Shown here: positions 1 to 48,365 of the stretch, in pieces | Position numbering within the stretch: position 1 is the first letter of the stretch | Layout: each line of letters opens with the position of its first letter | Assembly (NCBI GenBank): GCA_046861395.1 | Contig: JBHHUC010000004.1 | Span: 1,985 to 65,984 of the forward strand | Direction of reading: 5' to 3' | Origin: Fidelibacterota bacterium | GTDB lineage: Bacteria; Fidelibacterota; Marinisomatia; Marinisomatales; JABMOV01 | Length of the DNA: 64,000 nt | Notes under the pieces: generated by a model | Database searches by the model: none | What the model saw: only the letters and a program-made list of their open reading frames with translations | What the model was told of the DNA's origin: nothing | Program-made: the position numbers and the translations under genes

Positions 1-817
1 CCGGCACCAGGCGACAGGCCGCCGTAACATCGGGGAATAGGAGTAATCCGGTGGCTTTCTGTCCCGGGTCAGGGATGGTTTCAAATGTTATCCGTGAAAT
101 GAATGCTAGCGTACCTTCCGCCCCGATCAGGAGATGGGCAAAAATATCCAGCGGATGATCATAGTCGATGAAGGCATTCAGTGAATACCCCAGCGTATTC
201 TTCCGGCGGTATTTATCCCGGACCCGATCCGCCAGTTTCGGATGGTTTTCTATCCGTGCTTTCAATGTCAGCAATCCATCGGCCAGGGATTTTTCAACCT
301 TTACAAATCGGTCATAATCTTCTTCCACCGCAGTATCATAGATTTGGCCGTTGGCCAGGATGAAGCGGATCGTGTGCATGGTATGATAGGAATTATAAAC
401 CACACCGCAACACATGCCCGAAGCATTGTTACTGGCAATGCCACCGATCCGGGCGGCTTTGATGCTGGCAGGGTCCGGACCGATCCGCCGACCGTAGGGT
501 TGCAAAACACGATTGACGAATTCTCCCGTCAGTCCCGGCTCCACCGAAATGTATTTGCCCTGGTCCTTAATTGAATAACCCTTCCAATCCCGCACCACTT
601 CGGCGATCAGACCGCTGGTAACGGCCTGACCGGACAGGGATGTCCCGCCTGTGCGGAAGGTTACCGACGTAGAATGGGTCCGGGCGTAGGACAGCAATTC
701 ACGGATTTCATCTTCATTACGGGGGCGCACCACGGCCGATGGAACCAGACGGTATAAACTGGCATCATGGGCATAGGCCAACCGGTCGGTCCAACCGGTA
801 AGCAATTCAACGGGCAT
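1..817 (-). CDS. FAD-binding oxidoreductase, GlcD / D-lactate dehydrogenase-like (N-terminal part; gene runs off the left edge)
   Basis: Absent from the ORF track because it has no stop in the window. Manual minus-strand translation from ATG at 815-817 gives MPVELLTGWTDRLAYAHDASLYRLVPSAVVRPRNEDEIRELLSYARTHSTSVTFRTGGTSLSGQAV...IGGIASNNASGMCCG...LIGAEGTLAFISRITFETIP, open to position 1. FAD-binding PCMH-type motifs are present. The ATG overlaps the upstream thioesterase stop by 11 nt. Confidence 0.75.
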   Translation of the reverse strand, partial: MPVELLTGWTDRLAYAHDASLYRLVPSAVVRPRNEDEIRELLSYARTHSTSVTFRTGGTSLSGQAVTSGLIAEVVRDWKGYSIKDQGKYISVEPGLTGEFVNRVLQPYGRRIGPDPASIKAARIGGIASNNASGMCCGVVYNSYHTMHTIRFILANGQIYDTAVEEDYDRFVKVEKSLADGLLTLKARIENHPKLADRVRDKYRRKNTLGYSLNAFIDYDHPLDIFAHLLIGAEGTLAFISRITFETIPDPGQKATGLLLFPDVTAACRLVP

Positions 818-1247
818 GATGTTCCTGAAAGTACTGATGCAACACTTGCGGCACCGGGATCGGCCGGTTCAGGGTATAGTTATACGCCACCAATTTGAAT
901 TCAGCCTGCAGGATGGGGACCATTTCATCCGGCAGGAATATCCCCGTTTGCATATCAAAACTGGTCCGGCCGATTCGAGATATATTCTGACCGATTTCAA
1001 GCTGTGACGGATGGGTAATCGGATAAAAATAATGGATTTCCATTCCGGCCAGGATTGAACTGTTTTCCGCTTCCCACCGGGAATAATCCATGCCCAGGTT
1101 GTGGTAAAAATCCAGCCGGGCAGTTTCCATGTAGGAGAGATAGGCAGCATGATTAATATGTCGCAATCCGTCCATATCCCCCCAGCGTGTTCTGAGCGCG
1201 GTCCAGAATGAAAAATCCGATCGTTTTAATTTTTCCCGTTTCACCAT
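807..1247 (-). CDS. acyl-CoA thioesterase, hotdog fold (4HBT/YbgC-like)
   Basis: 146-aa ORF. RTRWGDMDGLRHINHAAYLSYMETARLDFY matches the N-terminal D-x-x-G-H-hydrophobic-N-x-x-Y motif of YbgC-type thioesterases. Confidence 0.65.
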   Translation of the reverse strand: MVKREKLKRSDFSFWTALRTRWGDMDGLRHINHAAYLSYMETARLDFYHNLGMDYSRWEAENSSILAGMEIHYFYPITHPSQLEIGQNISRIGRTSFDMQTGIFLPDEMVPILQAEFKLVAYNYTLNRPIPVPQVLHQYFQEHHAR

Positions 1248-1372
1248 GATGAAATTTAACGGTACTCCGGGAAAATGCGATCAGGAAATCCCGGCCAGCA
1301 GGCAGAATATTTTATTACGATTTTCTCCGAATGGTGGTAATATTCCGGTTATTACACACGATTGGAGGGTTC

Positions 1373-2623
1373 ATGAAGTTCAATTACTGGCGCATTTTAC
1401 TCCTGGGATTTGGATTTATGGGCGTTACGTTGCTCTGGGGAATATATAATGCCTACGTCCCCATCTTCCTGCAGGCCGGCCGGCCGGACTACAGTACTAC
1501 AGCCGGGGTCAACGGCTTCGGGATGAGTGCCGGGATTACCGGCTTCATCATGACGCTGGATAATATTGCCGCCCTGCTGATCCTGCCCTTTGTGGGCGCA
1601 TTCTCAGACCGGATCTGGACCAGAATCGGACGCCGAAAACCATTCATTTTATTCGGAGCGCCCCTGGCTTTCCTGGGCTTCATTGCCATCCCTCTTTTCG
1701 TAGGAAAATCGCTGGTATTCTTCATGGCTGCCATCGGTTTAACCCTGTTGGCGATGGATATTTTCCGTACACCTGTCATTTCCTTCATGGGCGATATTAC
1801 ACCGTCTCCCCGTCGTTCACAGGCTAATGGCATGATCAATCTTATGGGTGGTATCGGCGGCGTGCTGGCCTTTGTCGTTGGTGGTCTATTGTTTAAAGTG
1901 TCGGTCGGTGCTCCCTTTTATTTTGGCGGACTGGCCATGTTGGTGGGCTGTGGAATTGTCCTTCTATTGATCCGGGAACCGGAGCCACAGGAAGCCAATG
2001 CTCCGGAAGAAGAACCGGCCTTGATTCCCAGCCTGAAACGCGTCGTGCGGGACCGGGACAGGTCAGCTCTAATGCTCCTGGGAGCAATCTTCTTCTGGTT
2101 TCTGGGCTACGGCGCACTGGAAGTCTTTTTCACGTCTTTTGCCGTCAACCGTCTCCACGTTGACAGCGGCCAGGCGACCTTTCTGCTGGCATATTTCTCG
2201 ATTGCAATTATCGGGTTTTCCCCTCTCAGCGGCTGGATCGGAAGCCGAATGGGTCGGAAACGAACCATCGCAGTTGGAATTGTGGCCTTTGCTGTCCTAC
2301 TGGCCATCGGATTCTTCATGGATACGGTTCTTCAGGCCAAGATTATTCTGCCTCTGTGCGGGATTTCCTGGAGCCTGATTCTGGTGAATTCCCTGCCCAT
2401 GATTCTGGACATGGCCCCTCCCGGTCACCTCGGTGTCTATACCGGATTATATTACCTGGCCTCGCAATTCAGCAATATCGTGGGACCCATTCTATCCGGA
2501 AAGATTATAGACATTTTTCACAATGATTACAGAACCGCTTTTCTCTATGGGACATTTACCCTCCTGATCGCTCTGGTATTCCTGCTACCCGTTACAAAAG
2601 GTGAAGCCGTTGAGACCGGCTGA
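1373..2623 (+). CDS. MFS transporter (GPH/SLC45-like sugar-cation symporter type)
   Basis: Highly hydrophobic ORF with about 12 hydrophobic segments. It carries a RIGRRKPFILFG loop motif. Start moved from 1331 to ATG 1373, which has a GGAGGG 5 nt upstream. Confidence 0.75.
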   Translation: MKFNYWRILLLGFGFMGVTLLWGIYNAYVPIFLQAGRPDYSTTAGVNGFGMSAGITGFIMTLDNIAALLILPFVGAFSDRIWTRIGRRKPFILFGAPLAFLGFIAIPLFVGKSLVFFMAAIGLTLLAMDIFRTPVISFMGDITPSPRRSQANGMINLMGGIGGVLAFVVGGLLFKVSVGAPFYFGGLAMLVGCGIVLLLIREPEPQEANAPEEEPALIPSLKRVVRDRDRSALMLLGAIFFWFLGYGALEVFFTSFAVNRLHVDSGQATFLLAYFSIAIIGFSPLSGWIGSRMGRKRTIAVGIVAFAVLLAIGFFMDTVLQAKIILPLCGISWSLILVNSLPMILDMAPPGHLGVYTGLYYLASQFSNIVGPILSGKIIDIFHNDYRTAFLYGTFTLLIALVFLLPVTKGEAVETG

Positions 2624-2883
2624 TAGTACGATCATGACAATCGGTCCCGGCAACAGTAATCGATGCGGAGGCATGGGTTAAACCACTTGATTGAAGTTCG
2701 CGCATGATACCCTGAAGCAATGCCACCGATATTAGGCGGATCCGATTCCCTGGAAATGGTACGATTACGGTGTGCTTAAGAGACGGGCCTGAGGAAATGG
2801 TCAACATCCTTCAAATCGGTTGACATGTGTCGCAGTCAAACCCCTAGTCACTTAAATCGTCTTCCGTAATATACAAGGACCGG

Positions 2884-2931
2884 GGAATGCCATGCTGAAG
2901 CGTAACCAGTTTACTGTCATCATGGCATTCC
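2884..2931. repeat. perfect 11-bp inverted repeat (GGAATGCCATG / CATGGCATTCC) with a 26-nt spacer, in the 401-nt spacer between convergent genes
   Basis: Read directly: arms at 2884-2894 and 2921-2931. On the plus strand it is followed by AGACAGATTTTATTAT. Function (terminator, sRNA or protein site) is not established. Confidence 0.5.
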
Positions 2932-3024
2932 AGACAGATTTTATTATCCTGACCTCACAGTCCCGGTACAAGAAAATTAAGATAGATGAATCTAATCATC
3001 GCTCCGTCGCTGATAAGTGCCGGT

Positions 3025-4995
3025 TTATTGAACCAAATTCACATACTGTGAGAGGATTGCCCTGATTGCTTCACCATTATGGATTCCGCGACTACCGTCC
3101 TTGCGAATGGAGTCCAGAGCAGCTCGAATGGATTGTATTTCTTCCTGGGATAATCCGTTTCGTTTTTCTTCCAGGATAGATTCCAATTGCTCCATCTCAG
3201 CCTGGATTTCATCCTGCCATTCGCTGAAATAATCCTCATATTCTTCTTCATGGCAATCCACACAGGAAGCGGCTCCAGGACGAATCACCGGTTCGTCCTT
3301 TTCTCCGGCGTGACAGCCCAAGCAGTCTACGTCACCCTGTTCCATGAAGTCGGCCTCAATGTCCACCGCCAGATCAATGGATCCTTCATAGATTTCAGTC
3401 TGTAAACGATGACATTTTTCGCAGGAAACTTTTTCCTGGGTATGGTGACAATTCAGACATTCTGAACGGGTAATAGTCGTTTGTCCGTGGTTCTGCCGGT
3501 TCGAATGACAGGTGGAACAAGGTAATTTATTGTTATTGATATGAATATCATGACTGAAAGTAACTCCAAAGGCTTTGACGTCAACTTTTTCCTGGCCGTA
3601 GTGGCAATTGACGCATTCCGATGGTATCAGCTGGCTGTATTCGGATAAATCGGGTGAACATCCCTCCACTCCGATGAGGTCGGTAATCTTCTGTAAATCA
3701 TCCGATGCTTCCACCAGCAGCTTATCGGAAAAGGCCACATTGTGAACTACATTCCCGTTAAGGACCAGTTGGTAATTGTATTCCGCGGATGCTAAGGGTG
3801 GATTAATTTTTGCAAGAATTTCATCGGAATAATCCGCCGTCTGAATAATCTCCCTTACCTTAGCAAGACAATCCCCCACCAGGGTCAGTTTTTCTTCCAT
3901 GATGGATTCCCAGCGATCGAACAATTTGGCGTATCCGGTGCCGTGACAGCGTTCACAAGATTCTCCCTTGGCCCGGGACACTTTGTCGATCACTGAACGG
4001 GACGTTGATTCATGGAAAATATGGCAGGCCTGGCAATTCAATCCGGCCTCAAACATGGGATTGGGCAGTTGATAATCATGCATTGTATTGCGACCGGTAA
4101 ATAGGGTCAGCTGCTCCGTATGTTCCGATTCATGGCAACTGTTACACTCCGGCAATATGTCATCCGTTCGGGCAATGGATTTATGCTGGATACTCGTGTG
4201 GCAGCTCTGGCATTCCACTTTATGATCCGTGATATGATTCTTATGGATGAATTCCACATCGGAATACTTTTCCAGTTTTTCAATTTCCGCATGACAGACA
4301 CTGCAGCGGTTTTCAGGAACACTTCCGTCACCAACCTGCATTTCCCCGTGGCATTTCTGGCAGGTTATATTCTGTTCCAGGACATAAACATGGTCATAGG
4401 GTACGTCCGGTGTTTCTTCTGTCTTTACGGGTGCATTATGGCAATTGGTACATGAATTAATCGATTCCGTCAATTCTGATTGCTTGAAATGGCACAGGAA
4501 ACAGGTGTTTTTAGTAACTGAAATATGTTCCCCCTGAACAATCTGTGAATGACAACTGGTACAACGGAGCTTCTTGTTCCGGCGCAGTACCGTCAAATGC
4601 GGTTCATGGTCGAAAATGATGCCTTCCCTGAATTCAATTTCACCTTTCAAATTACGTTCCACATGACAGCCGGAACGCAAACAGGATGCATCTTCGATTT
4701 CGGCCCAGGGTTTTGATTTTTTATAGACCCCGGTCATATAGTTCACGACCATGGAAGCGGCTGTCAGTTTCCCCTTAACCTTGGATTTGAAGCCGGGTGG
4801 AAAATGACAGTCGGTACAGGTAACGTCGGCGTGCGAAGACGTTTTCCAGGCCGCGACATAGGGTTCCATAAAATGGCAGGTTGAACAAAAGGCAGGTTTT
4901 GATGTTACTTCAATAAGTCCGAATACGAATATCCCCCCCACTATCAGAATACCGGTAAATAGGAGCAACATACGTATCGTATTTTTCGTAGTCAT
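3025..4995 (-). CDS. membrane-anchored multihaem cytochrome c with a NapC/NirT/NrfH-type N-terminal module (17 CXXCH + 1 CX4CH)
   Basis: 656 aa. A single N-terminal TM helix (LLLFTGILIVGGIFVFGLI) is followed at once by CSTCH..W.TSSH..CTDCH. I counted 17 CXXCH motifs plus CLRSGCH. There are two haem-free helical segments of 109 and 74 aa. Confidence 0.9.
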   Translation of the reverse strand: MTTKNTIRMLLLFTGILIVGGIFVFGLIEVTSKPAFCSTCHFMEPYVAAWKTSSHADVTCTDCHFPPGFKSKVKGKLTAASMVVNYMTGVYKKSKPWAEIEDASCLRSGCHVERNLKGEIEFREGIIFDHEPHLTVLRRNKKLRCTSCHSQIVQGEHISVTKNTCFLCHFKQSELTESINSCTNCHNAPVKTEETPDVPYDHVYVLEQNITCQKCHGEMQVGDGSVPENRCSVCHAEIEKLEKYSDVEFIHKNHITDHKVECQSCHTSIQHKSIARTDDILPECNSCHESEHTEQLTLFTGRNTMHDYQLPNPMFEAGLNCQACHIFHESTSRSVIDKVSRAKGESCERCHGTGYAKLFDRWESIMEEKLTLVGDCLAKVREIIQTADYSDEILAKINPPLASAEYNYQLVLNGNVVHNVAFSDKLLVEASDDLQKITDLIGVEGCSPDLSEYSQLIPSECVNCHYGQEKVDVKAFGVTFSHDIHINNNKLPCSTCHSNRQNHGQTTITRSECLNCHHTQEKVSCEKCHRLQTEIYEGSIDLAVDIEADFMEQGDVDCLGCHAGEKDEPVIRPGAASCVDCHEEEYEDYFSEWQDEIQAEMEQLESILEEKRNGLSQEEIQSIRAALDSIRKDGSRGIHNGEAIRAILSQYVNLVQ

Positions 4996-5140
4996 AGTAA
5001 TTGATCCGATATTATTATATGTGGATTATTGATGTGATTCCCCCATTTGACTTGACCCCCGATATAGATTATTACCTTACATAGACAAACTGAATCGGGT
5101 AAATGAAATGAGGCTGTTTGAAATTGTTTGCATCATGACC

Positions 5141-5971
5141 TCAGCTAGGTGCAATGATTCCATTGTGACAAACCGGGCAGGATACGGTTATTTTTCCTTG
5201 TTCCCCTGATCGCGTATGGCACGAAGTGCAATAGATGCCCACGGTGTTTTCCTGCTCGGTATCGGTTTCTGCCTTGGCATGGTAATAGGCATGGCAATTT
5301 GTGCAGCGCTGGTCCAGCAGATAGGCTGTACCGTGGAATTGTTTCTGTTCTTCAATGGTGGCTGTGGAATCCACCGGTGTTCCCACCCAGATCGCCACAG
5401 GCGGGTGTCCACTTTCACCGCCTTCGTGGCAGGAATAACAGGAAATGCCTGTAATGCCCCCCTGATAATTGCTGCCATGACAAGCCTGGCATTTCTCAAT
5501 CCCGAAATCCCCGATACTGGCCATGTGAGAATAAGTGGAATCGGGGTTGGTCCATCCGGCGGTATGACTCTGTGCCCCGAGATAATGGCAACCGCTCTGG
5601 TAGCAGGTCACTTCGGCGATTCCACCCTGCAAAGTGGCGCCGTGGCAGGCTCCGCAAGCCTCCCACCCGAATTGGGATATGGCATCGGGATGGGATGTCC
5701 CGGATACGGTAAATACCCAGCCCTCTTCCTGATGTAAACCGTCCTCTAGATGGCAGTCGGAAGTAAAACAGGACACACCCGCTGATCCTCCCTGTAAATG
5801 TTCACCGTGACAGGGACGACAACTCTCCAACCCCACGACGGATAATTTTTTCATGTGGGAGATGGTTGCCTCGGGGTCAGCCCAGGTATCGGGATGGATG
5901 ATCTCTTCATTCAGTTCCGTGCAAGAAAAAACCAGTACTGAGACAGAGAACAATGTCAGAAATAATTTCAT
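5141..5971 (-). CDS. multihaem cytochrome c lipoprotein (7 CXXCH + 2 CX4CH)
   Basis: Signal peptide with lipobox LVFS|C. Motifs: CRPCH, CFTSDCH, CGACH, CYQSGCH, CQACH, CYSCH, CTNCH, CTSCH, CPVCH. The ORF track starts at GTG 5980; ATG 5971 (MKLFLTLF) forms an ATGA overlap with the upstream stop and is preferred. Confidence 0.88.
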   Translation of the reverse strand: MKLFLTLFSVSVLVFSCTELNEEIIHPDTWADPEATISHMKKLSVVGLESCRPCHGEHLQGGSAGVSCFTSDCHLEDGLHQEEGWVFTVSGTSHPDAISQFGWEACGACHGATLQGGIAEVTCYQSGCHYLGAQSHTAGWTNPDSTYSHMASIGDFGIEKCQACHGSNYQGGITGISCYSCHEGGESGHPPVAIWVGTPVDSTATIEEQKQFHGTAYLLDQRCTNCHAYYHAKAETDTEQENTVGIYCTSCHTRSGEQGKITVSCPVCHNGIIAPS

Positions 5972-6795
5972 TGATGACACCTCAAACAGGTTGGGTTGTT
6001 TTCGTCCAGATGACAGGCTTTACAGGTCATGGGACTATCAGCCGCAGAACTGCCATGTAACCCACCGTCCTCCGGCAGGTTATTGACCCAGTCTGGCAAA
6101 TTATGGTCCACCGGCATATGCTGATTCCGGACATGACAGGTATAGCAACTGGTGGCAATATTATGGCAGGTATAGCAATCTTTGATCCCCAAACGGGATT
6201 CCATGCCGTGGCGAATCATGAAATCGACCGGATGTACGCGGGGTTCGAACTGCTGCAGGGCATGGCATTGGTCACAATAGGATTGCGTGTGGCACATGGA
6301 ACAGTTATTTTCATCTCTACTAACCACTGTGGAACCGTGAATATCTTTCCAACCCGGCATATGGTTTTCCGGTTTATTAATACTGTGGCATTGCCGACAT
6401 TGTGATTCATCCCAAGCCTGATACCGTTCCTCGCCATCATCGACGAGCGTCGCGCCATGACATTTGCCACAGTCCGTAAACCGGGATAAATGCCGTTTAT
6501 GCGAAAAGGGCAATCCGCTGTTATGATGAAATTCCTGGTAGGACAATGGATCATCAGTATTCATATGACAAATCGAACAGTTTTCATCATCCTCGACTTC
6601 GTGACAATCAGAACAGACATCCATGGTGGGGAGAATGCTGTAGTCCAATTGGGTGGATTGGGACACATCACTATGACAAGTGGTACATTCCAGTTCTTCA
6701 TCCTCTACGTGCAGAGGATGGGAAAAACGGATATAATCCGTCGTTTGTCCGCTGAGAATGACGGACAGCATGAGTATGATACTATAACGCGACAT
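5968..6795 (-). CDS. periplasmic multihaem cytochrome c (11 CXXCH)
   Basis: 275 aa with Sec-type signal MSRYSIILMLSVILSGQ and no lipobox. There are 11 CXXCH motifs, about one haem per 25 residues. The start overlaps the upstream barrel-gene stop by 14 nt. Confidence 0.9.
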   Translation of the reverse strand: MSRYSIILMLSVILSGQTTDYIRFSHPLHVEDEELECTTCHSDVSQSTQLDYSILPTMDVCSDCHEVEDDENCSICHMNTDDPLSYQEFHHNSGLPFSHKRHLSRFTDCGKCHGATLVDDGEERYQAWDESQCRQCHSINKPENHMPGWKDIHGSTVVSRDENNCSMCHTQSYCDQCHALQQFEPRVHPVDFMIRHGMESRLGIKDCYTCHNIATSCYTCHVRNQHMPVDHNLPDWVNNLPEDGGLHGSSAADSPMTCKACHLDENNPTCLRCHQ

Positions 6796-7951
6796 GAATG
6801 GTTACTCCTCCCCTTCCGTCCTGGATAAAATATGGATTCGACGCCATCCGGAAATAACTGCGAAAGGCAATATTCCGCATGGGATTCCACTCCAGCCAGC
6901 CATAGATACCATAGGAATTGGCATTTTCGAACCATTCATCCACCAGAACCAGAATATTGGTTTCATAATTCAAACCAACCCTGATTTTACGATGAATTGT
7001 CCGGGTCAAACCGACATTGCCACCGTACCAGGTCCTGCGGCCCTGCGATCCCACCAGTAAGCCCAGGGAATAATCTTTGTAAACTGCGGCACTATGCAGA
7101 TAGGTGGATGGTTCATTTTGAAATCGATATGAATATTGGTTCACTACTGCCAGTTTTCGCCCGAACCGTGACCGGGTCTGGAAGTAAAAGGTCGGCGGAA
7201 TGGTAATACCTTCCTCACTCCAATGAAAGAGTTCCCCAACCATATATCGGCGTTGCTTCAGACCTAATTGCAATAGGTGATTATTCAGATTGTACTGTAG
7301 GGAAAAGCGGAAATTATGGATTCGTTCGCTTTCCTGATCGTAACTGATCTGCTGACTGATCTGGATACCGAAAATGGGATAAGTCCAGGCCAAACCGGTA
7401 AAAGAATGGCTTTCGCCGCCTAACGATTGTGTCCAGTACGATGCCTGAAGATTCCTGAATCGATTTCCCGCAGTCCAGGAAACCAGTACCACGGGATCGG
7501 GTGAAGCAGAATCTCGGGTCAATTCATAAATGGCTTCGAGTCCGGATAAGAATGTGAATCGACCCAGTCGCCGGGTCTTTAACGCATAGGTCAGACCATC
7601 GAAACGCAGGTTATTCATCCGGCTCCAATATCCTTGCCGACCCAAAGCAATTGAATGTGTATTATTCTGATAGCGAATTGATAATTGATACATCCGGAAG
7701 GATTTCGTTAATAGGAGGTTGGTACTCCCTACTTCCAGCAAGGATTGTATGGCAATGTGCCGGGTGGGATCGGCGTGGAATTGCAATACACTGCGCCACT
7801 GGAGATCTTCATCCGCGCTCCAGAGATGTAAGCGGGGTGTGATAAAGGAGCTGGTCAGAGATGTGGTCGTAGCACCATGAACGATTGAAATGAAGACGAA
7901 AAAACACATCAGGCCAGAGCGTCGCAAATTTCGCATGAGCAAGGAATTCAT
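6782..7951 (-). CDS. secreted beta-strand-rich protein, probable outer-membrane beta-barrel (candidate porin partner of the cytochromes)
   Basis: 389 aa with signal peptide MRNLRRSGLMCFFVFISIVHG|ATT. It has many alternating aromatic/polar strand-like segments (YQLSIRYQ, LTYALKT, FRFSLQYNL, FYFQTRSRF, VGLNYETN, YGIYGWLEW) and no Cys or haem motif. No family was recognised by eye. Confidence 0.6.
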   Translation of the reverse strand: MNSLLMRNLRRSGLMCFFVFISIVHGATTTSLTSSFITPRLHLWSADEDLQWRSVLQFHADPTRHIAIQSLLEVGSTNLLLTKSFRMYQLSIRYQNNTHSIALGRQGYWSRMNNLRFDGLTYALKTRRLGRFTFLSGLEAIYELTRDSASPDPVVLVSWTAGNRFRNLQASYWTQSLGGESHSFTGLAWTYPIFGIQISQQISYDQESERIHNFRFSLQYNLNNHLLQLGLKQRRYMVGELFHWSEEGITIPPTFYFQTRSRFGRKLAVVNQYSYRFQNEPSTYLHSAAVYKDYSLGLLVGSQGRRTWYGGNVGLTRTIHRKIRVGLNYETNILVLVDEWFENANSYGIYGWLEWNPMRNIAFRSYFRMASNPYFIQDGRGGVTIHVAL

Positions 7952-8000
7952 TTTATTTCCATATGGTTATGATGTTTTCCATTAAGGATAATCGGAACCG

Positions 8001-8465
8001 TTACTGTTCCCGGAGTTTCATTTCGAATAATTCCTTTAAATGTCCCACCTGCCCGGCAGCGCGATACACATTACAGTCGCGACAATCATCCTGCTGACAT
8101 TTATCCGAGGCAACATTCAATTGCCAGCAAGCCTGGTCATTGGAATGGTAGGCCTGACAATTCCGGCGTTCTTCCGGAGCACAGGGTTTTAGGTTCCAGC
8201 AAGGAATCAGGGCCAGTAGACGACGAATACCGGCAATATTCAATTTATGGATATTGATTTGTCGTCGGATACACATGATCCAGTCCAAATCAGAATGGGA
8301 ATACAAACGCCGCCCAGTGGCCGTCTTATGTGGCAATAATAATCCTTCCCGCTCATAAAGGCGTAATGTTTCGGGTGAAACACCAATTTTAACGGCGGCA
8401 ACGCCAATTGTGAAAACTGGTTCTGAGGCTTCAAAAGAGACGGATTGAAAGTCTGGTTGATCCAT
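8001..8465 (-). CDS. MerR-family transcriptional regulator with a Cys-rich C-terminal region
   Basis: The N-terminal HTH FTIGVAAVKIGVSPETLRLYEREGLLLPHKTATGRRLYSHSDL is typical of MerR. The C-terminus holds 7 Cys within about 45 aa (CWNLKPCAPEERRNCQAYHSNDQACWQLNVASDKCQQDDCRDC). Confidence 0.85.
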   Translation of the reverse strand: MDQPDFQSVSFEASEPVFTIGVAAVKIGVSPETLRLYEREGLLLPHKTATGRRLYSHSDLDWIMCIRRQINIHKLNIAGIRRLLALIPCWNLKPCAPEERRNCQAYHSNDQACWQLNVASDKCQQDDCRDCNVYRAAGQVGHLKELFEMKLREQ

Positions 8466-8475
8466 TTGGGATATC

Positions 8476-8493
8476 CTGTATTATCCGATACAG
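8476..8493. promoter_or_regulatory. perfect 6-6-6 palindrome CTGTAT-TATCCG-ATACAG, 11 nt upstream of the merR-like start codon (candidate operator)
   Basis: Read directly from the sequence in the divergent intergenic region 8466-8615. No binding data. Confidence 0.3.
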
Positions 8494-8570
8494 TAAAATT
8501 ACCAAATTTCATAATTATATACAATGATTATAAGATGTTAATATCTTCTTTAATTAATGCCGTTGAAGCC

Positions 8571-16396: not shown

Positions 16397-17572
16397 TCAA
16401 CGCAACAGGACGCTGCGCAGCTGATCCATGTAGCGGGGATTTTTCCCTACAACCGAATAGGAGAACAAAGCAACGCCGGGAAATCGCGTAATCTTTGTAT
16501 ATTTGATTTTATCGGCCACATCCGGTGCTTTCTGATTATATGTGGCAATGCCCATGATGATTTTATCGCGGTATTTCTGAGGCAGATTATCATAAATAAT
16601 ATCAATATTCTTGGCAAATCCACGGATGGAAACGGAATAATTCATGGGGATTGCCCAGTCTATATAATTGGCAGCCAACCACACATCCCATTCCTGTAAA
16701 TACCGGTCACGTGCTTCATATAAATTGGGTTTAACAGCGGCTGAAAGAATGCAGTCAGGACGAACCTCTGCAATCATGCGGTGTGTATCCTTGACCAGAT
16801 TGGTGACAGCCTGGCGTTTATAATCACCCCACTTTGACAATTTGGAAGCAGTTTGGACATCATTGGTTTTCAGGTTCTTCATAAATAGAAAACGTTGCGG
16901 GTCATCTCCGTTATGATCGGTATAATGTTCCATCGCCTTATCATTCTTTCCATAATGGGAATCCTTGTAGCGAATATAATCGAAATGCAGACCATCCAGG
17001 TCATATTTCGCTACCAATTCTCTGAATACAGCCAGTAAATATGGATTTACACTGGGATGATGAGGCGCCAGATAGATGCCTTCATCCCTGCCCTTCTTCT
17101 CCCTGTATTGCTGAATCATGGCTTTGGCATTCTTGGCCTGATCATCCTGGTCAAACCAGTCCGGATGCGTATATACCAGATGATCATTACTATAAGGCAT
17201 GGAGTTCGATGACCAGAGAATATAGACATTCACCCAAGCATGAACCTGAATCCCACGGGAATGGGCTCTCCGGATAATAACAGACAGGGGATCAAAAGAA
17301 TCATTCGCCAGTAAGGCGCTGCGGGGTACGATATCGGATTGATAGAGTGCGTCCCCGCGACCACGTACCTGTACAAATAAATGGGTAATTTTATTGCGTG
17401 CTGCAAAGTCGACGACTTCATCAATGGCCTGTTCACTGAGGATGGAATTTCGTACGACCCATAGACAGGTGTATTGGAGCGGTTTATTAACCGGAGCTGT
17501 AAATACCAGACTTAAAGTAAAAAGGGTAGTAAATATTACTACCCTTGAATGTTTCGTCAATAAATGTGACAA
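16397..17572 (-). CDS. glycoside-hydrolase-like family 10 (GHL10/DUF187, YngK-like) protein
   Basis: 391 aa with HLFVQVRGRGDALYQSDIVP, GIQVHAWVNVY, LDGLHFDYIRY motifs. TTG start and a signal-like N-terminus. Confidence 0.7.
   Translation of the reverse strand: MSHLLTKHSRVVIFTTLFTLSLVFTAPVNKPLQYTCLWVVRNSILSEQAIDEVVDFAARNKITHLFVQVRGRGDALYQSDIVPRSALLANDSFDPLSVIIRRAHSRGIQVHAWVNVYILWSSNSMPYSNDHLVYTHPDWFDQDDQAKNAKAMIQQYREKKGRDEGIYLAPHHPSVNPYLLAVFRELVAKYDLDGLHFDYIRYKDSHYGKNDKAMEHYTDHNGDDPQRFLFMKNLKTNDVQTASKLSKWGDYKRQAVTNLVKDTHRMIAEVRPDCILSAAVKPNLYEARDRYLQEWDVWLAANYIDWAIPMNYSVSIRGFAKNIDIIYDNLPQKYRDKIIMGIATYNQKAPDVADKIKYTKITRFPGVALFSYSVVGKNPRYMDQLRSVLLR
17511..17546 (-). terminator. candidate intrinsic terminator of the alpha operon (lies inside the first ~20 codons of the next ORF)
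   Basis: Minus-strand RNA AAGGGUAGUA-AUAUU-UACUACCCUU followed by UUUACUUU. This is a perfect 10-bp stem (17522-17531 / 17537-17546), 49 nt downstream of the rplQ stop. Confidence 0.45.
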
Positions 17573-17594
17573 TGGAACGATGAAAATAATCTAT

Positions 17595-18008
17595 TTATTC
17601 TGATTTGTCGTCTTTTTTCGATTTTTTCTCTTTTTTTGTCCCTTCACCTTCCATATCAACCAATTCGATTAGCGATACTTCGGCCCGATCATTATCACGG
17701 AAACCAAGTTTAATTATGCGGGTATATCCACCGGGACGGTCGGCATAGACCGGGGCTATTTCATGAAACAGGGAATGCACTACATCCTTATGGCGAATTT
17801 TCCTCATCACTTGACGCCTGGCATGGACATCACCACGTTTGGCAAAGGTAATTAACGGTTCAATAAACTCCCGCAGAGCCTTGGCCCGGGTATGAGTCGT
17901 TTTGATACGTTTGTGTTCAACCAGGGAGGCTGCCATATTGGCCATCATCGCTTTGCGGTGTGACTTGGTTGACAAGCCTAATTTTCGGGTGGATTTACGG
18001 TGCCGCAT
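17595..18008 (-). CDS. rplQ: 50S ribosomal protein L17
   Basis: [26 protein letters not shown] signature; follows rpoA. Confidence 0.97.
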
Positions 18009-18009
18009 G

Positions 18010-18981
18010 TCAGATTTCTTCCGTTAAATATTCGTCAACATTCATTCCAAAATGGAGTCCCATTTCATCCAGTTTTTCTACCAGCTCGGTTAGTGATTTC
18101 CGGCCGAAGTTTTTGTATTTAAGCATTTCGCTTTCTTCTTTGCTCACCAGTTCACTGATATACTTAATACCTGCAGCCTGGAGACAATTAAAGCTTCGGA
18201 CGGAAAGTTCCATTTCATCAATGGTAGATTTTAACAATTTCCGAATGGACAGGACTTCTTCACTCACATTATCCGTGACTTCCAGGACTTCCGGACGGCT
18301 TAATGCTTCAACGGTTTTCAAATGTGCTGTCAAGACGGAGGCAGAATAGGATATGGCATCCACGGGAGTGATGGACCCGTCCGTCTCGATTTCTATTTTC
18401 AGCATTTCTGTGGACTCTTTCTCACCCGGGAGTGAAGTGACATTATATGACACTTTGGTCACCGGATTGAAAATACTGTCAATGGAAATCATGCCGATGG
18501 GAGAATTGGGTAATTCATTTTCCTCCGATGGGACATAGCCCTTACCGATGCCAATCCGTAATTCCATCCTCAATTCACCTTTTTCATTGATTTCGGTGAT
18601 ATAATGATCGGGATTGAGTATCTCGAACTGATCACTGACATCCTGAATATCTTTGGCCGTTACGGTACAGGGTCCCTGAAGATGAAGCAAAACACGATCG
18701 GGGTTCTGGTCCATTAATTTAAAACGCACACCCTTCAGATTCATGATAATATCGGCCACATCTTCCCGTACACCTTCCAGGCTGGCAAATTCGTGTTGCA
18801 CATTCTCAATACTTACATTGGTGATGGCGGCTCCAGGAATGGACGTAAGCGCCACCCGGCGCAAAGCATTCCCTAAGGTGATCCCGTATCCGCGCTGCAG
18901 TGGCTGCACGATAAACTCGGCTTTATTATCACTGACGGATTTCGTTTCGATTGCTAGATTGAAATCTAAATTATTTGCCAT
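18010..18981 (-). CDS. rpoA: DNA-directed RNA polymerase subunit alpha
   Basis: 323 aa with [20 protein letters not shown] and C-terminal [10 protein letters not shown] motifs. Alpha-operon position. Confidence 0.97.
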
Positions 18982-19001
18982 GGTATTCCTGTTCTGATTT
19001 C

Positions 19002-19619
19002 TTATTTGGAGTATAACTCAACGACCAACTGTTCATTAACAGTCAAATTCATCTGGTCCCGCTCTGGCAAGGCAACAAAAGTACCCGACATCCGGGCTTT
19101 GTCAAGTTCCAGCCAGGGCAAGTCAATATCGCCTTTGATGCGCCGCATGGCATCCTGGATGATATCCAATTTTTTACTTTTATTGCGAACCTGAATTACA
19201 TCTCCCGGTTTCACCCGGTAGGACGGAATATTTACGGAGCGACCATTGACCAAAAAATGTCGGTGGTTGACCAATTGCCGTGCCGCCGGCCGTGAAGGTG
19301 CGAATCCTAAACGGTAGACAACATTGTCCAGCCGGCTTTCCAATAATTGCAATAGGTTCGTTCCGGTTTCACCCACCATTTGATCCGCTTTATTGAAATA
19401 GTTGCGGAATTGTTTTTCCAACAAGCCATACATGAATTTTATTTTTTGTTTTTCACTGAGCTGAACACCATAGTTGGACATCCGGCGACGGCGGGTCTGA
19501 CCATGCTGTCCCGGACCGTATGGTTTTTTAGCTAGGAGGCGGTCATATTTGGTATTACCAAAGATGTTTTCGCCAAATTTTCTTACGAGCTTTCCTTTTG
19601 CTCCGGTAAACTTTGCCAT
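19002..19619 (-). CDS. rpsD: 30S ribosomal protein S4
   Basis: 205 aa with YGVQLSEKQK and LESRLDNVVYRLGFA motifs. Confidence 0.97.
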   Translation of the reverse strand: MAKFTGAKGKLVRKFGENIFGNTKYDRLLAKKPYGPGQHGQTRRRRMSNYGVQLSEKQKIKFMYGLLEKQFRNYFNKADQMVGETGTNLLQLLESRLDNVVYRLGFAPSRPAARQLVNHRHFLVNGRSVNIPSYRVKPGDVIQVRNKSKKLDIIQDAMRRIKGDIDLPWLELDKARMSGTFVALPERDQMNLTVNEQLVVELYSK

Positions 19620-19634
19620 GTTTTCTCCTACCCC

Positions 19635-20030
19635 TTATACCCGGCGGCGTTTTGGTGGCCGACAGCCATTATGCGGTAATGGTGTGACGTCTTTGATGGA
19701 TGTAATCTGTAATCCGGCAACGGCCAGGGATCGAATTGCCGATTCGCGTCCGGCACCCGGTCCTTTTACTCGTACTTCTACATTCTGCAGTCCCATGGAC
19801 ATGGCGTCGTTGGCCGCATTCTGTGCTGCCTGTGATGCTGCATAGGCTGTATTTTTCCGTGACCCCTTGAATCCGGATGTTCCGGCGGTAGCCCAGGCAA
19901 TCACATTGCCGAATTTATCGGATAATGTAATATGCGTATTGTTAAATGTTGCTTTAATGTGTGCGACACCGGAAGGATCGACTGAACCCTTCTTTTTCTT
20001 TTTTCGCTTATCTGATCCAGCTTTAGCCAA
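19635..20030 (-). CDS. rpsK: 30S ribosomal protein S11
   Basis: 131 aa with [18 protein letters not shown] and [16 protein letters not shown] motifs. Confidence 0.97.
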
Positions 20031-28391: not shown

Positions 28392-28736
28392 TTATTTGCT
28401 GTCAGAAACAACAATAGTTAAATGAGCTGACGGGCGACGCAACCGGCTAGCTCGACCCATGGATGCAGCGCGAAACCGTTTCATCACCGGTCCACCATCC
28501 ACATAGGCTTGCACGATATATAATGATTCCGGATCGATCGATTTATCATCCGATATCACCATCAGGTTCGCTACGGCTGATCGTAAGGTCTTTTCAATGA
28601 CCACGGCAGCCTTTTCCGGTGAAAAATGCAGCGTATTTAACGCCGCGCCGACTTGCTTCCCGCGGACTAGTTCAAGCGTCTTACGAACTTTCCGGGGAGA
28701 TTGACGGATATAACGATGTTTTGCTGTCGCTTCCAT
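28392..28736 (-). CDS. rplV: 50S ribosomal protein L22
   Basis: RYIRQSPRKVRKTLELVRGK, VDGGPVMKRFRAASMGRASRLRRPSAHL. Confidence 0.96.
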   Translation of the reverse strand: MEATAKHRYIRQSPRKVRKTLELVRGKQVGAALNTLHFSPEKAAVVIEKTLRSAVANLMVISDDKSIDPESLYIVQAYVDGGPVMKRFRAASMGRASRLRRPSAHLTIVVSDSK

Positions 28737-31718: not shown

Positions 31719-32928
31719 GTTTCAGTCCTTACTTAATTATCTCCGTTACAACACCGGCTCCCACCGTATGCCCTCCTTCACGAATCGCAAAGCGCAATTC
31801 CTTATCCATCGCAATCGGGGTTATCAACTCTACCGTTAATTCCACCTGATCACCTGGCATCACCATCTCCGTTCCCTCCGGCAAATGGGCCACTCCCGTG
31901 ACATCCGTCGTACGGAAGTAAAACTGCGGCCGATATCCATCAAAAAACGGTGTGTGACGTCCGCCCTCTTCCTTCTTCAACACATACACATTGGCCTTGA
32001 AATTCGTATGCGGTGTAATACTCCCCGGTTTGGCCAATACCATCCCGCGGGATAATTCGTCCTTGTCCACACCACGCAGCAATAATCCGGCATTATCTCC
32101 GGCACGACCTTCATCCAATATCTTACGGAACATCTCAACACCGGTACATACCGTCTTGCGATGAACCCCCATACCAAGAATCTCTAACTCATCACCAACC
32201 TTCACGATTCCGCGCTCAATACGTCCCGTACCCACCGTACCACGACCGGTAATGCTGAATACATCTTCCACCGGCATTAAAAACGGCTTATCAATATCAC
32301 GCTTCGGTTCCGGAATAAAGCTGTCACAGGCATCCAGTAATTCCACGATCGATTTCGTCGCCTCTGCATCACTAGGATTATTCAGTGCCGTTAATGCACT
32401 CCCCATGATAATCGGGGTATCATCCCCCGGAAATTCATATTCATTCAATAAATCACGTAATTCCATCTCCACCAGCTCCAACAGCTCCGGATCATCCACC
32501 TGGTCTGTCTTATTCATATAAACCACAATGCTGGGAACATTCACCTGGCGAGCCAACAATACATGCTCACGGGTCTGCGGCATGGGACCATCGGCGGCAC
32601 TTACTACCAGAATCGCGCCATCCATCTGAGCGGCTCCCGTGATCATGTTCTTGATATAATCCGCATGGCCCGGACAATCCACATGGGCATAATGACGATT
32701 CTCCGTCTCATACTCCACATGAGCCGTCTGGATCGTAATACCACGCTCACGCTCTTCCGGAGCGTTATCAATCGAATCAAATGACCGTACCTCTGACATC
32801 CCGCGGGCACCCTGTACCAGAGTGATTGCCGCCGTTAATGTCGTCTTACCATGATCTACATGACCTATCGTTCCGATGTTTATATGAGGCTTCGTCCTCT
32901 CAAATTTTGCCTTTGACATGGGTCCTCC
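31716..32928 (-). repeat. 1213-bp direct repeat, copy A (tuf plus both flanking spacers)
   Basis: Read base-by-base against 47153-48365 (offset 15437) with no mismatch seen. It runs from the GTG start of rpsJ to the base before the fusA stop codon. Confidence 0.9.
31729..32919 (-). CDS. tuf: elongation factor Tu (copy in the str operon, after fusA)
   Basis: 396 aa with [22 protein letters not shown] motifs. Protein identical to the copy at 47166-48356. Confidence 0.98.
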
Positions 32929-47155: not shown

Positions 47156-48365
47156 GTTTCAGTCCTTACTTAATTATCTCCGTTACAACACCGGCTCCCA
47201 CCGTATGCCCTCCTTCACGAATCGCAAAGCGCAATTCCTTATCCATCGCAATCGGGGTTATCAACTCTACCGTTAATTCCACCTGATCACCTGGCATCAC
47301 CATCTCCGTTCCCTCCGGCAAATGGGCCACTCCCGTGACATCCGTCGTACGGAAGTAAAACTGCGGCCGATATCCATCAAAAAACGGTGTGTGACGTCCG
47401 CCCTCTTCCTTCTTCAACACATACACATTGGCCTTGAAATTCGTATGCGGTGTAATACTCCCCGGTTTGGCCAATACCATCCCGCGGGATAATTCGTCCT
47501 TGTCCACACCACGCAGCAATAATCCGGCATTATCTCCGGCACGACCTTCATCCAATATCTTACGGAACATCTCAACACCGGTACATACCGTCTTGCGATG
47601 AACCCCCATACCAAGAATCTCTAACTCATCACCAACCTTCACGATTCCGCGCTCAATACGTCCCGTACCCACCGTACCACGACCGGTAATGCTGAATACA
47701 TCTTCCACCGGCATTAAAAACGGCTTATCAATATCACGCTTCGGTTCCGGAATAAAGCTGTCACAGGCATCCAGTAATTCCACGATCGATTTCGTCGCCT
47801 CTGCATCACTAGGATTATTCAGTGCCGTTAATGCACTCCCCATGATAATCGGGGTATCATCCCCCGGAAATTCATATTCATTCAATAAATCACGTAATTC
47901 CATCTCCACCAGCTCCAACAGCTCCGGATCATCCACCTGGTCTGTCTTATTCATATAAACCACAATGCTGGGAACATTCACCTGGCGAGCCAACAATACA
48001 TGCTCACGGGTCTGCGGCATGGGACCATCGGCGGCACTTACTACCAGAATCGCGCCATCCATCTGAGCGGCTCCCGTGATCATGTTCTTGATATAATCCG
48101 CATGGCCCGGACAATCCACATGGGCATAATGACGATTCTCCGTCTCATACTCCACATGAGCCGTCTGGATCGTAATACCACGCTCACGCTCTTCCGGAGC
48201 GTTATCAATCGAATCAAATGACCGTACCTCTGACATCCCGCGGGCACCCTGTACCAGAGTGATTGCCGCCGTTAATGTCGTCTTACCATGATCTACATGA
48301 CCTATCGTTCCGATGTTTATATGAGGCTTCGTCCTCTCAAATTTTGCCTTTGACATGGGTCCTCC
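47153..48365 (-). repeat. 1213-bp direct repeat, copy B (tuf plus both flanking spacers)
   Basis: Identical by eye to 31716-32928. It runs from the GTG start of rpmG to 22 nt before tRNA-Thr(GGT). Confidence 0.9.
47166..48356 (-). CDS. tuf: elongation factor Tu (copy downstream of the tRNA cluster)
   Basis: 396 aa, identical to the copy at 31729-32919. It sits in the thrU-tyrU-glyT-thrT-tufB-type context. Confidence 0.98.

Follow-up and report, generated by a model that had tools for sequence, protein, structure and literature searches.

By what route could a diderm bacterium hand its respiratory electrons to an acceptor that stays outside the cell? This question is raised by a cluster of five genes in a 64-kb stretch of DNA (hereafter, the window) from a metagenome-assembled genome (MAG) of the Fidelibacterota, also referred to as Marinimicrobia or SAR406. 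Besides a regulator of the MerR family, the cluster would encode an outer-membrane beta-barrel, a cytochrome with 11 haem sites, a lipoprotein cytochrome with nine, and a NapC-like cytochrome with 18. We propose that these proteins make up a porin-cytochrome conduit of the Pcc type, taking respiratory electrons out of the menaquinol pool and delivering them beyond the outer membrane, and we give this interpretation a probability of roughly two in three. A preliminary description of the same DNA, made from its letters and open reading frames (ORFs), had already put forward a candidate porin-cytochrome conduit. The fold of the barrel, the conservation of the haem sites, and the deep synteny of the cluster now support that proposal in silico, and those of the checks suggested with it that were run here all went in its favor.

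Organization and conservation of the cluster

The five genes are co-directional, all on the minus strand, and every ORF was found where the preliminary description had placed it. They encode, in reading order, the MerR-family regulator (8465-8001; 154 amino acids, aa), the outer-membrane beta-barrel (7951-6782; 389 aa), the undecahaem cytochrome (6795-5968; 275 aa), the lipoprotein multihaem cytochrome (5971-5141; 276 aa), and the NapC-like 18-haem cytochrome (4995-3025; 656 aa). Their junctions also agree with that first account, with a gap of 49 nucleotides (nt), an overlap of 14 nt, an ATGA overlap of 4 nt, and a gap of 145 nt from the merR gene to the 656-aa gene. The haem sites of the three cytochromes (11, 9, and 18) sum up to 38. 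Apart from the NapC/NirT head of the 656-aa protein, Pfam gives these cytochromes no more than generic multihaem matches of the c7/c3 type. Near-identical copies of the cluster have been assembled independently from other sequencing runs, and three of these copies cover all five genes.

The barrel family allows the comparison of nine loci, namely the window and those that we label L006, L014, L016, L018, L020, L021, L022, and L023. Since the gene order recurs in the eight other loci with barrels that are only 19-35% identical, the cluster is not a chance assemblage. The trio formed by the barrel, a periplasmic multihaem cytochrome, and a lipoprotein multihaem cytochrome is kept across the nine loci as a conserved gene neighborhood. 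A cytochrome gene of 274-306 aa directly follows the barrel gene in nine out of nine, normally with overlapping reading frames, and the lipoprotein cytochrome comes next in all eight loci that extend far enough, usually with a start/stop overlap. The cytochrome after the barrel has 11 CXXCH motifs in eight of the nine loci, and 10 CXXCH plus one CX3-4CH in L020. Six of the nine loci carry a MerR gene upstream of the barrel, and the Cys-rich C-terminal motif is common to its products. The 18-haem gene is clustered with that of the barrel in the window, L006, L014, L016, L018, and L023, and is absent from the clusters of L021 and L022. Most relatives encode downstream a c554-like tetrahaem cytochrome, one or two fusions of a multihaem c domain with cytochrome b561 (the architecture of Geobacter CbcL), and the 18-haem protein. 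The window represents the minimal version of this arrangement, with the 18-haem protein only and neither the b561 fusions nor the c554-like tetrahaem protein.

The outer-membrane barrel

The 389-aa protein starts with a Sec signal peptide (residues ~1-26). It had been described as free of Cys, which holds true for the mature protein but not for the precursor, where one Cys is found at residue 16, inside the signal peptide. An AlphaFold2 model built on an alignment of 29 family sequences is all-beta, with 22 antiparallel strands and no plug (predicted local distance difference test, pLDDT, 89.2; predicted TM-score, pTM, 0.78). This model replaced one made from the single sequence, which was discarded for its pLDDT of 31. 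When compared with the PDB by Foldseek, the alignment-based model gave 268 matches with E<=1e-3, the best 50 of which are all outer-membrane barrels, and the top query TM-score among the matches listed is 0.52, for the 22-strand BtuB. Family-averaged hydrophobicity alternates with a period of two along the strands, an amphipathic pattern with a z of 5.9 that none of 2000 shuffles equaled. Tight turns of 2-5 residues alternate with longer loops on the other side, which reach a maximum of 15 residues, and the C-termini of the family resemble a beta-signal, as in ...HVAL or ...NYTF. By its model, its structural matches, and its amphipathicity, the strand-rich protein first described is therefore a confidently modeled 22-strand membrane barrel.

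The estimated C-alpha radius of a 22-strand barrel is ~20 A, versus ~23.5 A for one of 26 strands. Lacking both a plug and a constriction loop, such a barrel would be an enormous open pore, and would thus need another protein to fill its lumen.

Regarding the relatives of the barrel, an exhaustive HMMER search (phmmer) of 1.84 billion representative sequences defines a family of 34 clusters, which are 21-36% identical and nearly all 375-450 aa long. Word-indexed homology searches recover only the query itself, both with a single sequence and with a profile (two hits), so that the family is seen only by exhaustive HMMER. All the members with a named source are a "hypothetical protein" of Marinimicrobia, Neomarinimicrobiota, Fidelibacterota, or the "FCB group" (Fibrobacterota-Chlorobiota-Bacteroidota), except one, whose "Simkaniaceae" label is probably a binning error. 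Neither the Pfam nor the NCBIfam scan of all 29 aligned members gave a match, and the search of PDB sequences with the family profile found no relative. As far as these sequence searches reach, the barrel founds an unannotated family that is restricted to the Fidelibacterota/Marinimicrobia. A reading of the protein as an MtrB-like barrel was rejected, given that none of the 29 members matches PF11854 (MtrB/PioB) or an NCBIfam model, that the alignment by hhalign of the family profile with a PF11854-positive MtrB/PioB protein reaches a probability of 0.3%, and that the model has 22 strands.

The undecahaem cytochrome

The gene overlapping that of the barrel encodes a Sec-signal cytochrome with 11 CXXCH motifs, the same number that was originally counted. 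These 11 motifs, together with 10 His residues outside them, are invariant across six undecahaem clusters that share 39-47% identity, and this invariance is the signature of a bis-His electron-transfer chain rather than of a catalytic haem protein. The undecahaem profile matches modular cytochromes of the c7 type, such as a domain of GSU1996 (PDB 3ouq; 1.5e-13) and the ActA subunit of alternative complex III (ACIII; 3.7e-12), which suggests an elongated chain of bis-His haems. Against TIGR03508, the DmsE/MtrA family, the protein scores 17 bits, below the cut-off of 192.2. Its alignment by hhalign with an MtrA-like decahaem cytochrome, with a probability of 95%, rests largely on the CXXCH columns. 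The divergence of the undecahaem cytochrome is correlated with that of the barrel (Mantel r=0.57; 12 of 5000 permutations as high). We propose that this cytochrome is the haem wire inside the barrel, into which it would be inserted.

The lipoprotein cytochrome

The third protein of the trio carries a lipobox (LVFS-C), seven CXXCH, and two CX4CH motifs, in agreement with the preliminary description, and is built of three tandem dihaem repeats of ~55 aa. The two CX4CH motifs are credible as real haem sites because they occupy the position of a CXXCH in the third repeat and in homologues. Eight clusters keep the sequence Thr/Asn-Glu/Asp after the lipobox Cys, as well as an HPxxW motif, with a haem number ranging from 4 to 10. 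With regard to the MtrC/OmcA family, the lipoprotein scores 14.8 bits against PF22113, whose cut-off is 30, and there is no PDB sequence match to MtrC. The protein is proposed to be the terminal cytochrome at the outer face, and would be exposed at the cell surface.

Other multihaem cytochromes accompany the barrel in some relatives. In L021, the cluster includes a cytochrome of 1022 aa with nine CXXCH motifs (16488-19556) and a Por_Secre_tail, the C-terminal sorting domain of type IX secretion; by its sequence, this would be a multihaem protein exported to the cell surface by that system. An extra lipoprotein cytochrome is encoded upstream of the barrel in L016 (5567-6973), L017 (5328-6734), and L021 (7343-8935), where a conserved in-frame TGA interrupts a poly-Gly linker (GGGG-TGA-GG). 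This TGA is seen in two divergent lineages, and the orthologue in L014 (736-2133) is one unbroken ORF. The codon could stand for selenocysteine, for read-through, or for a genuine split. When searched for a selenocysteine insertion sequence, L021 showed a small hairpin after the TGA (z=-2.2) and L016 showed none.

The 18-haem NrfH-headed cytochrome

The preliminary description had counted 17 CXXCH motifs in the 656-aa protein, and this count stands. However, it overlooked an 18th site, the CX4CH at C105LRSGCH, which is at least 90% conserved in 107 homologues. The NapC/NirT head that it had assigned to the protein is recovered by PF03264 at residues 10-94 (47.5 bits against a cut-off of 24.1), and is of the NrfH type. 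There is one N-terminal transmembrane (TM) helix, with the haems of the head bound at C37, C60, C105 (CX4CH), and C145. Beyond the head, six haems of the c7/c3 type are followed by an OcwA/NrfA-like eight-haem module with a helical tail. Among PDB sequences, NrfH (2j7a_C) aligns with residues 21-83 (5.6e-9), and 6i5b with residues 321-644 (1.3e-6). The latter entry is titled "Uncharacterized protein", and we take it to be OcwA, a surface cytochrome with nine haems from Thermincola potens. The CXXCHxM signature of haem 1 is present as C37STCHFM, and all 18 sites, 35 His residues, and Met43 are at least 90% conserved in the 107 homologues. A quinol site is thus supported by the PF03264 score above the cut-off, by the PDB match to NrfH, and by the conserved Met of CXXCHxM. 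The protein stays under all the equivalog cut-offs of NCBIfam, including those for NrfH (TIGR03153, 51.5 versus 134.2), NapC (31.4 versus 310.6), and TorC (32.4 versus 478.2).

A catalytic role of the cluster in the reduction of nitrite, sulfite, or tetrathionate was considered and rejected for the window, since the cluster, including the 656-aa protein, has no CXXCK, the distal His residues of the haems are conserved, and a catalytic-haem reductase of the NrfA, Otr, or MccA type is present in none of the nine loci.

At E<=1e-3, the 18-haem family numbers 2596 proteins, with members in Marinimicrobia, Aminicenantes, Acidobacteriota, and Armatimonadota; the scan of genome contigs with the window protein as a single-sequence query returned eight loci. 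This wide spread, plus its occurrence in clusters without a barrel, indicates a general hub rather than a dedicated part, and the protein appears to be a quinol-to-periplasm hub into which different outer-membrane modules may plug. Examples of this would include two barrel-less Fidelibacterota loci, L008 (6562-9250) and L009 (4505-7201), where the 18-haem gene is followed by those of an 8-haem membrane-anchored cytochrome, a 4Fe-4S protein with a twin-arginine translocation signal (Fer4_11), and a membrane protein of the NrfD family. The 18-haem genes of both loci sit with a Rieske/cytochrome-b pair, the 8-haem/4Fe-4S/NrfD module, and a c554-like protein; in L008, the Rieske/cytochrome-b pair and a 9-haem cytochrome precede the 18-haem gene. 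Judging from gene content, this arrangement would be a second, barrel-less respiratory module around the same hub. In the Aminicenantes MAG JASFEP01 (L010, 4551-7671), a homologue with 38% identity is encoded beside a PF11854-positive MtrB/PioB barrel of 725 aa and a 10-haem MtrA-like cytochrome. That locus also carries a c/b561 fusion and a c554-like tetrahaem protein, and looks like an Mtr-type conduit with the same inner-membrane toolkit.

A side observation concerns the reading frame of this gene in the window. A run of seven G at ~4937-4943 falls in codons 17-20, within the region coding for the TM helix. One of four independent assemblies, L001 (SRR29324588), has six G instead of seven at ~13010, which frameshifts the 18-haem gene and moves its called start 42 codons later. 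The difference reflects either an assembly error or a slippage-prone tract.

Comparison with known electron conduits

The closest parallel to the cluster is found in the Pcc class, in the definition that Shi, Fredrickson and Zachara gave in 2014 (PMC4245776). The porin-like proteins of this class have 18-22 strands and are "much smaller than MtrB". Their periplasmic cytochromes bind 5-14 haems and co-evolve with the barrel, and the outer-membrane cytochromes are highly variable and often have atypical CX3-15CH motifs, typically CX3-4CH (PMC4245776). Pcc clusters are associated with genes of inner-membrane cytochromes, and their distribution includes Ignavibacterium album, a member of the FCB group (IALB_1837-1839; PMC4245776). 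Each of these features has its counterpart in the window. The barrel, modeled with 22 strands, fits this range and falls well short of MtrB in size; the periplasmic cytochrome, with 11 haems, is encoded next to the barrel and co-varies with it; the lipoprotein, which would be placed at the outer face, has atypical CX4CH motifs and is the part that varies most among relatives; and an inner-membrane cytochrome gene is attached to the cluster. The preliminary description had noted that the barrel is half the size of MtrB, and had suggested from this an independent or undescribed type of conduit. That argument does not hold for the size, which is normal for a Pcc (PMC4245776), although the barrel family is indeed unannotated and confined to one phylum. 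With a half-size barrel being the norm for conduits of the Geobacter type, the system is best seen as a Pcc-type variant rather than as an architecture of its own.

The Pcc clusters of Geobacter sulfurreducens (OrfR/S-OmbB/C-OmaB/C-OmcB/C) follow the same order of regulator, barrel, periplasmic multihaem cytochrome, and lipoprotein multihaem cytochrome. The haem numbers differ, OmaB having 8 haems versus 11 in the window, and OmcB having 12 sites versus 9 in the window lipoprotein. The regulators differ as well, since OrfR belongs to the TetR family and the window encodes a Cys-rich MerR protein. In the phmmer search, no relative of the barrel was found outside Marinimicrobia/FCB, and no single-sequence similarity to the Geobacter or Ignavibacterium barrels was detected, in a search in which OmbB and IALB_1839 were not compared directly. 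The working criterion of the original Pcc survey was a BLAST E<0.01 to OmbB/OmaB/OmcB (PMC4245776). On sequence grounds, what is new with respect to the Pcc class is the barrel family, the fixed number of 11 haems, the 18-haem NrfH-fusion quinol dehydrogenase, and the Cys-rich MerR regulator.

MtrCAB and CymA of Shewanella, as well as MtoAB and PioAB, obey the same logic, with a quinol dehydrogenase of the NapC/NirT type, a periplasmic multihaem cytochrome in a barrel, and a multihaem lipoprotein at the surface. Their components are nevertheless different. The barrels of Mtr/Mto/Pio have ~26 strands, ~650-700 aa, and PF11854, in contrast to the 22 strands and 389 aa of the window barrel; MtrA/DmsE (TIGR03508) is a decahaem family, whereas the window cytochrome has 11 haems and scores far under its cut-off; and CymA is a tetrahaem protein, whereas the quinol dehydrogenase of the window is an 18-haem fusion. 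By eye, the preliminary description had seen no orthologues of these proteins in the window, and our tests of membership in the MtrB/PioB, MtrA/DmsE, and MtrC/OmcA families lead to the same conclusion.

The entry of electrons from quinol has further parallels. ImcH (NapC/NirT-related, 7 haems) and CbcL (a 9-haem c domain plus a dihaem b domain) perform the same quinol-oxidizing role in Geobacter, and relatives of the cluster encode CbcL-like c/b561 fusions next to an NrfH-headed cytochrome. Compared with ImcH and CbcL, the window protein has a single TM helix, an NrfH-type head with the Met ligand of CXXCHxM, and 18 haems. NrfH from Desulfovibrio vulgaris (2j7a chain C) resembles it in the N-terminal TM helix, in haem motifs 1 and 2, and in the CXXCHxM signature, but the cluster encodes no NrfA partner and no CXXCK, the third head haem of the window protein is bound by a CX4CH, and 14 more haems are fused to its head. 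The window protein therefore departs from the small tetra- or pentahaem proteins of the NapC/NirT/NrfH class that work with a separate partner (NrfA, NapAB, or TorA), no partner reductase being encoded in the cluster. As to the c7-type modules of the undecahaem cytochrome, they are shared with the dodecahaem "nanowire" GSU1996 (3ouq/3ov0) and with ActA, which differ in haem number and context, GSU1996 being soluble and periplasmic, with no paired barrel. The similarity of the C-terminal module of the 18-haem protein to 6i5b is weak, and the window protein is membrane-anchored, belongs to a diderm, and has no evident haem with open coordination.

Proposed electron route and alternative readings

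In the route that we propose, the NrfH-type head of the 18-haem cytochrome would oxidize quinol on the periplasmic side of the inner membrane, and the 14 further bis-His haems of the same protein would carry the electrons into the periplasm. These would then be passed on to the undecahaem cytochrome, a slim protein of c7 modules that would be seated inside the plug-less 22-strand barrel and whose gene appears translationally coupled to that of the barrel. From there, electrons would reach the lipid-anchored 9-haem cytochrome at the outer face, oriented outwards, which would reduce an insoluble or non-permeant acceptor, such as Fe(III)/Mn(IV) oxides, humics, or elemental sulfur/polysulfide. The Cys-rich MerR protein, with a conserved dyad before its own gene, would adjust expression to a metal or redox signal. 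Gene content in relatives also speaks for the conduit, namely the CbcL-like fusions and the c554-like tetrahaem protein near the barrel, the Aminicenantes homologue beside a genuine MtrB/PioB barrel, and the L021 cytochrome with the type IX secretion tail.

Several observations weigh against this proposal. The lipid-modified Cys is followed at +2 or +3 by Glu/Asp, which leaves the topology of the lipoprotein ambiguous. Acidic residues at these positions resemble the surface-export signal of FCB bacteria, which is established for Bacteroidota and extrapolated here to Fidelibacterota, whereas in Enterobacteria an Asp at +2 retains the lipoprotein at the inner membrane. The orientation of the lipoprotein is the weakest link of the conduit. 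In addition, the 18-haem family exceeds the barrel family in spread by about two orders of magnitude, is also found without any barrel (L008 and L009), and its gene in the window is separated from the trio by the 145 nt mentioned above. A rhodanese or a Psr-like molybdoenzyme operon adjoins four of the nine loci, and could indicate periplasmic sulfur chemistry instead of extracellular electron transfer (EET). Lastly, no cultured organism carries the cluster.

The same wire could run in the opposite direction, since bis-His multihaem chains are in principle reversible. Electrons would then be taken up from Fe(II), reduced minerals, sulfide/S0 surfaces, or partner cells, in the manner of MtoAB/PioAB, with the head reducing quinone or the 18-haem protein feeding a terminal oxidase or reductase. 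The source names of the closest relatives point to hydrothermal or hot-spring MAGs (L006, "FCB group bacterium"; L007, "Neomarinimicrobiota J089"), and some loci have rhodanese/Psr neighbors, with the PsrABC of Marinimicrobia having been discussed as possibly working on H2S and polysulfide (PMC5688066). The window itself shows no signs of lithotrophy, the neighbors of the cluster being genes of histidine utilization and housekeeping functions, and no genes of Cyc2 or of an oxidase are linked to the cluster. Furthermore, NrfH/CymA-type heads and CbcL-like partners are characterized as quinol oxidases in reducers. We regard electron uptake as unlikely, although it deserves to be kept in mind.

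The sulfur-linked neighbors bear on a second alternative, where there would be no wire across the outer membrane at all. The barrel would instead be a wide channel for solutes, such as polysulfide, thiosulfate, or another bulky substrate, the cytochromes would serve a periplasmic chain leading to a reductase encoded elsewhere, for instance Psr, and the lipoprotein would face the periplasm. A rhodanese-domain lipoprotein is in fact encoded directly upstream of the barrel in a more distant branch of the barrel family (L016, 7002-7937; L021, 8977-9927; L022, 658-1695), and in L018 a PsrABC-like molybdoenzyme operon, together with two Sulf_transp genes and a rhodanese gene, comes before the MerR-barrel cluster (216-5744). 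Clusters of psr and rhodanese genes have been reported for Marinimicrobia (PMC3906813, PMC5688066). However, neither rhodanese nor Psr is found in the window or in the three closest clusters (L006, L014, and L023), a 22-strand barrel without plug or constriction loop would not be selective, and the overlapping frames and the pairing of barrel and undecahaem cytochrome in nine of nine loci argue for a stoichiometric complex. The rhodanese lipoproteins themselves bear a poly-acidic tract after the lipobox Cys, as in C-SDDDDDD, C-GEEETQD, or C-EDEKETE. These tracts resemble the surface-export signals of FCB bacteria, and would place the sulfur chemistry outside the cell, which fits a conduit reducing S0. 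Because of the missing sulfur genes in the window and its three closest clusters, the barrel without selectivity elements, and the poly-acidic tracts, a conduit with a possible sulfur acceptor in some lineages is favored over a periplasmic pathway, and we consider the solute channel quite improbable. By gene context, the rhodanese/Psr neighbors suggest a link of the conduit to sulfur or polysulfide chemistry, possibly at the cell surface, and the acceptor in some lineages may be extracellular sulfur.

That the barrel and the undecahaem cytochrome alone are the conduit, as in the two-gene Pcc/Mto/Pio systems, with the lipoprotein and the 18-haem protein as co-located periplasmic or inner-membrane accessories, could be argued from the two-gene Pcc clusters, whose periplasmic cytochromes are larger and have 12-14 haems (PMC4245776), from the capacity of eleven haems to span the membrane, from the 4 to 10 haems of the lipoprotein, and from the lack of the 18-haem gene in L021 and L022, but it is very unlikely in view of a lipoprotein gene that follows the undecahaem gene in eight of eight loci long enough, usually with a start/stop overlap, and that has a conserved N-terminal motif.

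The MerR regulator and candidate regulatory DNA

The 154-aa regulator has the N-terminal helix-turn-helix of the MerR type (PF13411, 2e-17; PF00376, 2e-11), and falls under every NCBIfam equivalog cut-off for MerR, CueR, ZntR, SoxR, and HspR. Its C-terminal domain is rich in Cys, with the pattern PCW..KPC..C..ND..CW.L..C..C.VY kept in four clusters, and the protein may sense metals or redox conditions. A perfect dyad, CTGTAT-N6-ATACAG (8476-8493), is located 11-28 nt upstream of the merR start codon and occurs once in the window, where 0.05 occurrences are expected. Equivalent dyads are found at the same distance upstream of merR in L014 (TGTAT-N6-ATACA) and L016 (CTGTA-N8-TACAG), making this element a candidate operator for the MerR-family regulator, as far as its sequence and position suggest.

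A sigma-70-like promoter candidate lies upstream of merR on the minus strand (8514-8541; TTAACA-16-TATAAT, 11 of 12 matches), as the result of a consensus scan only, which is not evidence of function. In the 145-nt intergenic spacer (4996-5140, minus strand), the same kind of scan gives a weak promoter-like site at 5038-5011 (9 of 12 matches), from which the NapC-like gene may have its own promoter. The terminator and promoter scans were at or below the shuffle expectation, and do not define the operon structure.

The 10-mer TATCGGATNA occurs six times in the window against 0.88 expected, a number reached by 0 of 100 shuffles. Its copies are found at 5002-5011, 8481-8490, 19916-19925, 28546-28555, 36919-36928, and 63031-63040, one of them 7 nt before the start codon of the NapC-like gene and another 16 nt before that of merR. 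An operator function of this 10-mer is not claimed, since there are also copies at unrelated sites.

Genomic surroundings

The origin of the cluster in a mobile island was considered and rejected, as it lies ~10 kb from the super-operon of ribosomal-protein, rpoBC, and tuf genes and has a normal GC content. The region 14123-48760 has the appearance of ordinary core chromosome, with hut genes (urocanase and imidazolonepropionase), a block of ribosomal-protein genes, secY, and rpoA, as well as EF-G and rpoB/rpoC. Two ORFs of 396 aa (31729-32919 and 47166-48356) are probably duplicate tuf genes, and a cluster of tRNA genes (Thr-Tyr-Gly-Thr ... Trp) lies within the same region. Among these core genes, Pfam supports urocanase, imidazolonepropionase, and L17 only, the other protein genes having been assigned from ORF size and order. 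No further multihaem genes were found elsewhere in the 64-kb window.

Implications for the Fidelibacterota

In the dark ocean and in oxygen-minimum zones, the Fidelibacterota rank with the most abundant bacterial phyla that are still uncultured. Their anaerobic energy metabolism has so far been described mainly through psr, nar, and nos genes, and EET is not a trait attributed to the phylum in its main genomic descriptions, which do not mention multihaem cytochromes (PMC3906813, PMC5688066). In the literature that pairs Marinimicrobia, Marinisomatota, Fidelibacterota, or SAR406 with multihaem cytochromes, porin-cytochrome systems, or EET, we found no description of this cluster. The nearest match is that of some Marinisomatota MAGs from hadal sediments, which matched the porin-cytochrome hidden Markov models of FeGenie (PMC10809760).

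Porin-cytochrome conduits are the route by which diderm bacteria respire minerals, electrodes, and partner cells, and what is known about them rests on a few Proteobacteria and Desulfobacterota. With its barrel annotated only as "hypothetical", the conduit proposed here could be missed by homology-based surveys of EET, and the alignments of the barrel and of the undecahaem cytochrome could yield profiles for FeGenie or MHCscan. Nor is the trait rare in nature, given that a single barrel cluster may be found on as many as 104 assembled contigs.

If the proposal is true, an independent family of barrels would join the short list of sheaths for haem wires, compact enough to be attractive for structural and synthetic-biology work. 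We put forward, tentatively, that the Fidelibacterota may own a lineage-specific conduit, made of a loop-less 22-strand barrel and an 18-haem NrfH-fused dehydrogenase, which would enable EET by pelagic heterotrophs to particulate Fe/Mn oxides or elemental sulfur. For a marine phylum that abounds worldwide, the cluster would then provide a concrete and testable basis for EET, with particles of sulfur or metal as possible acceptors.

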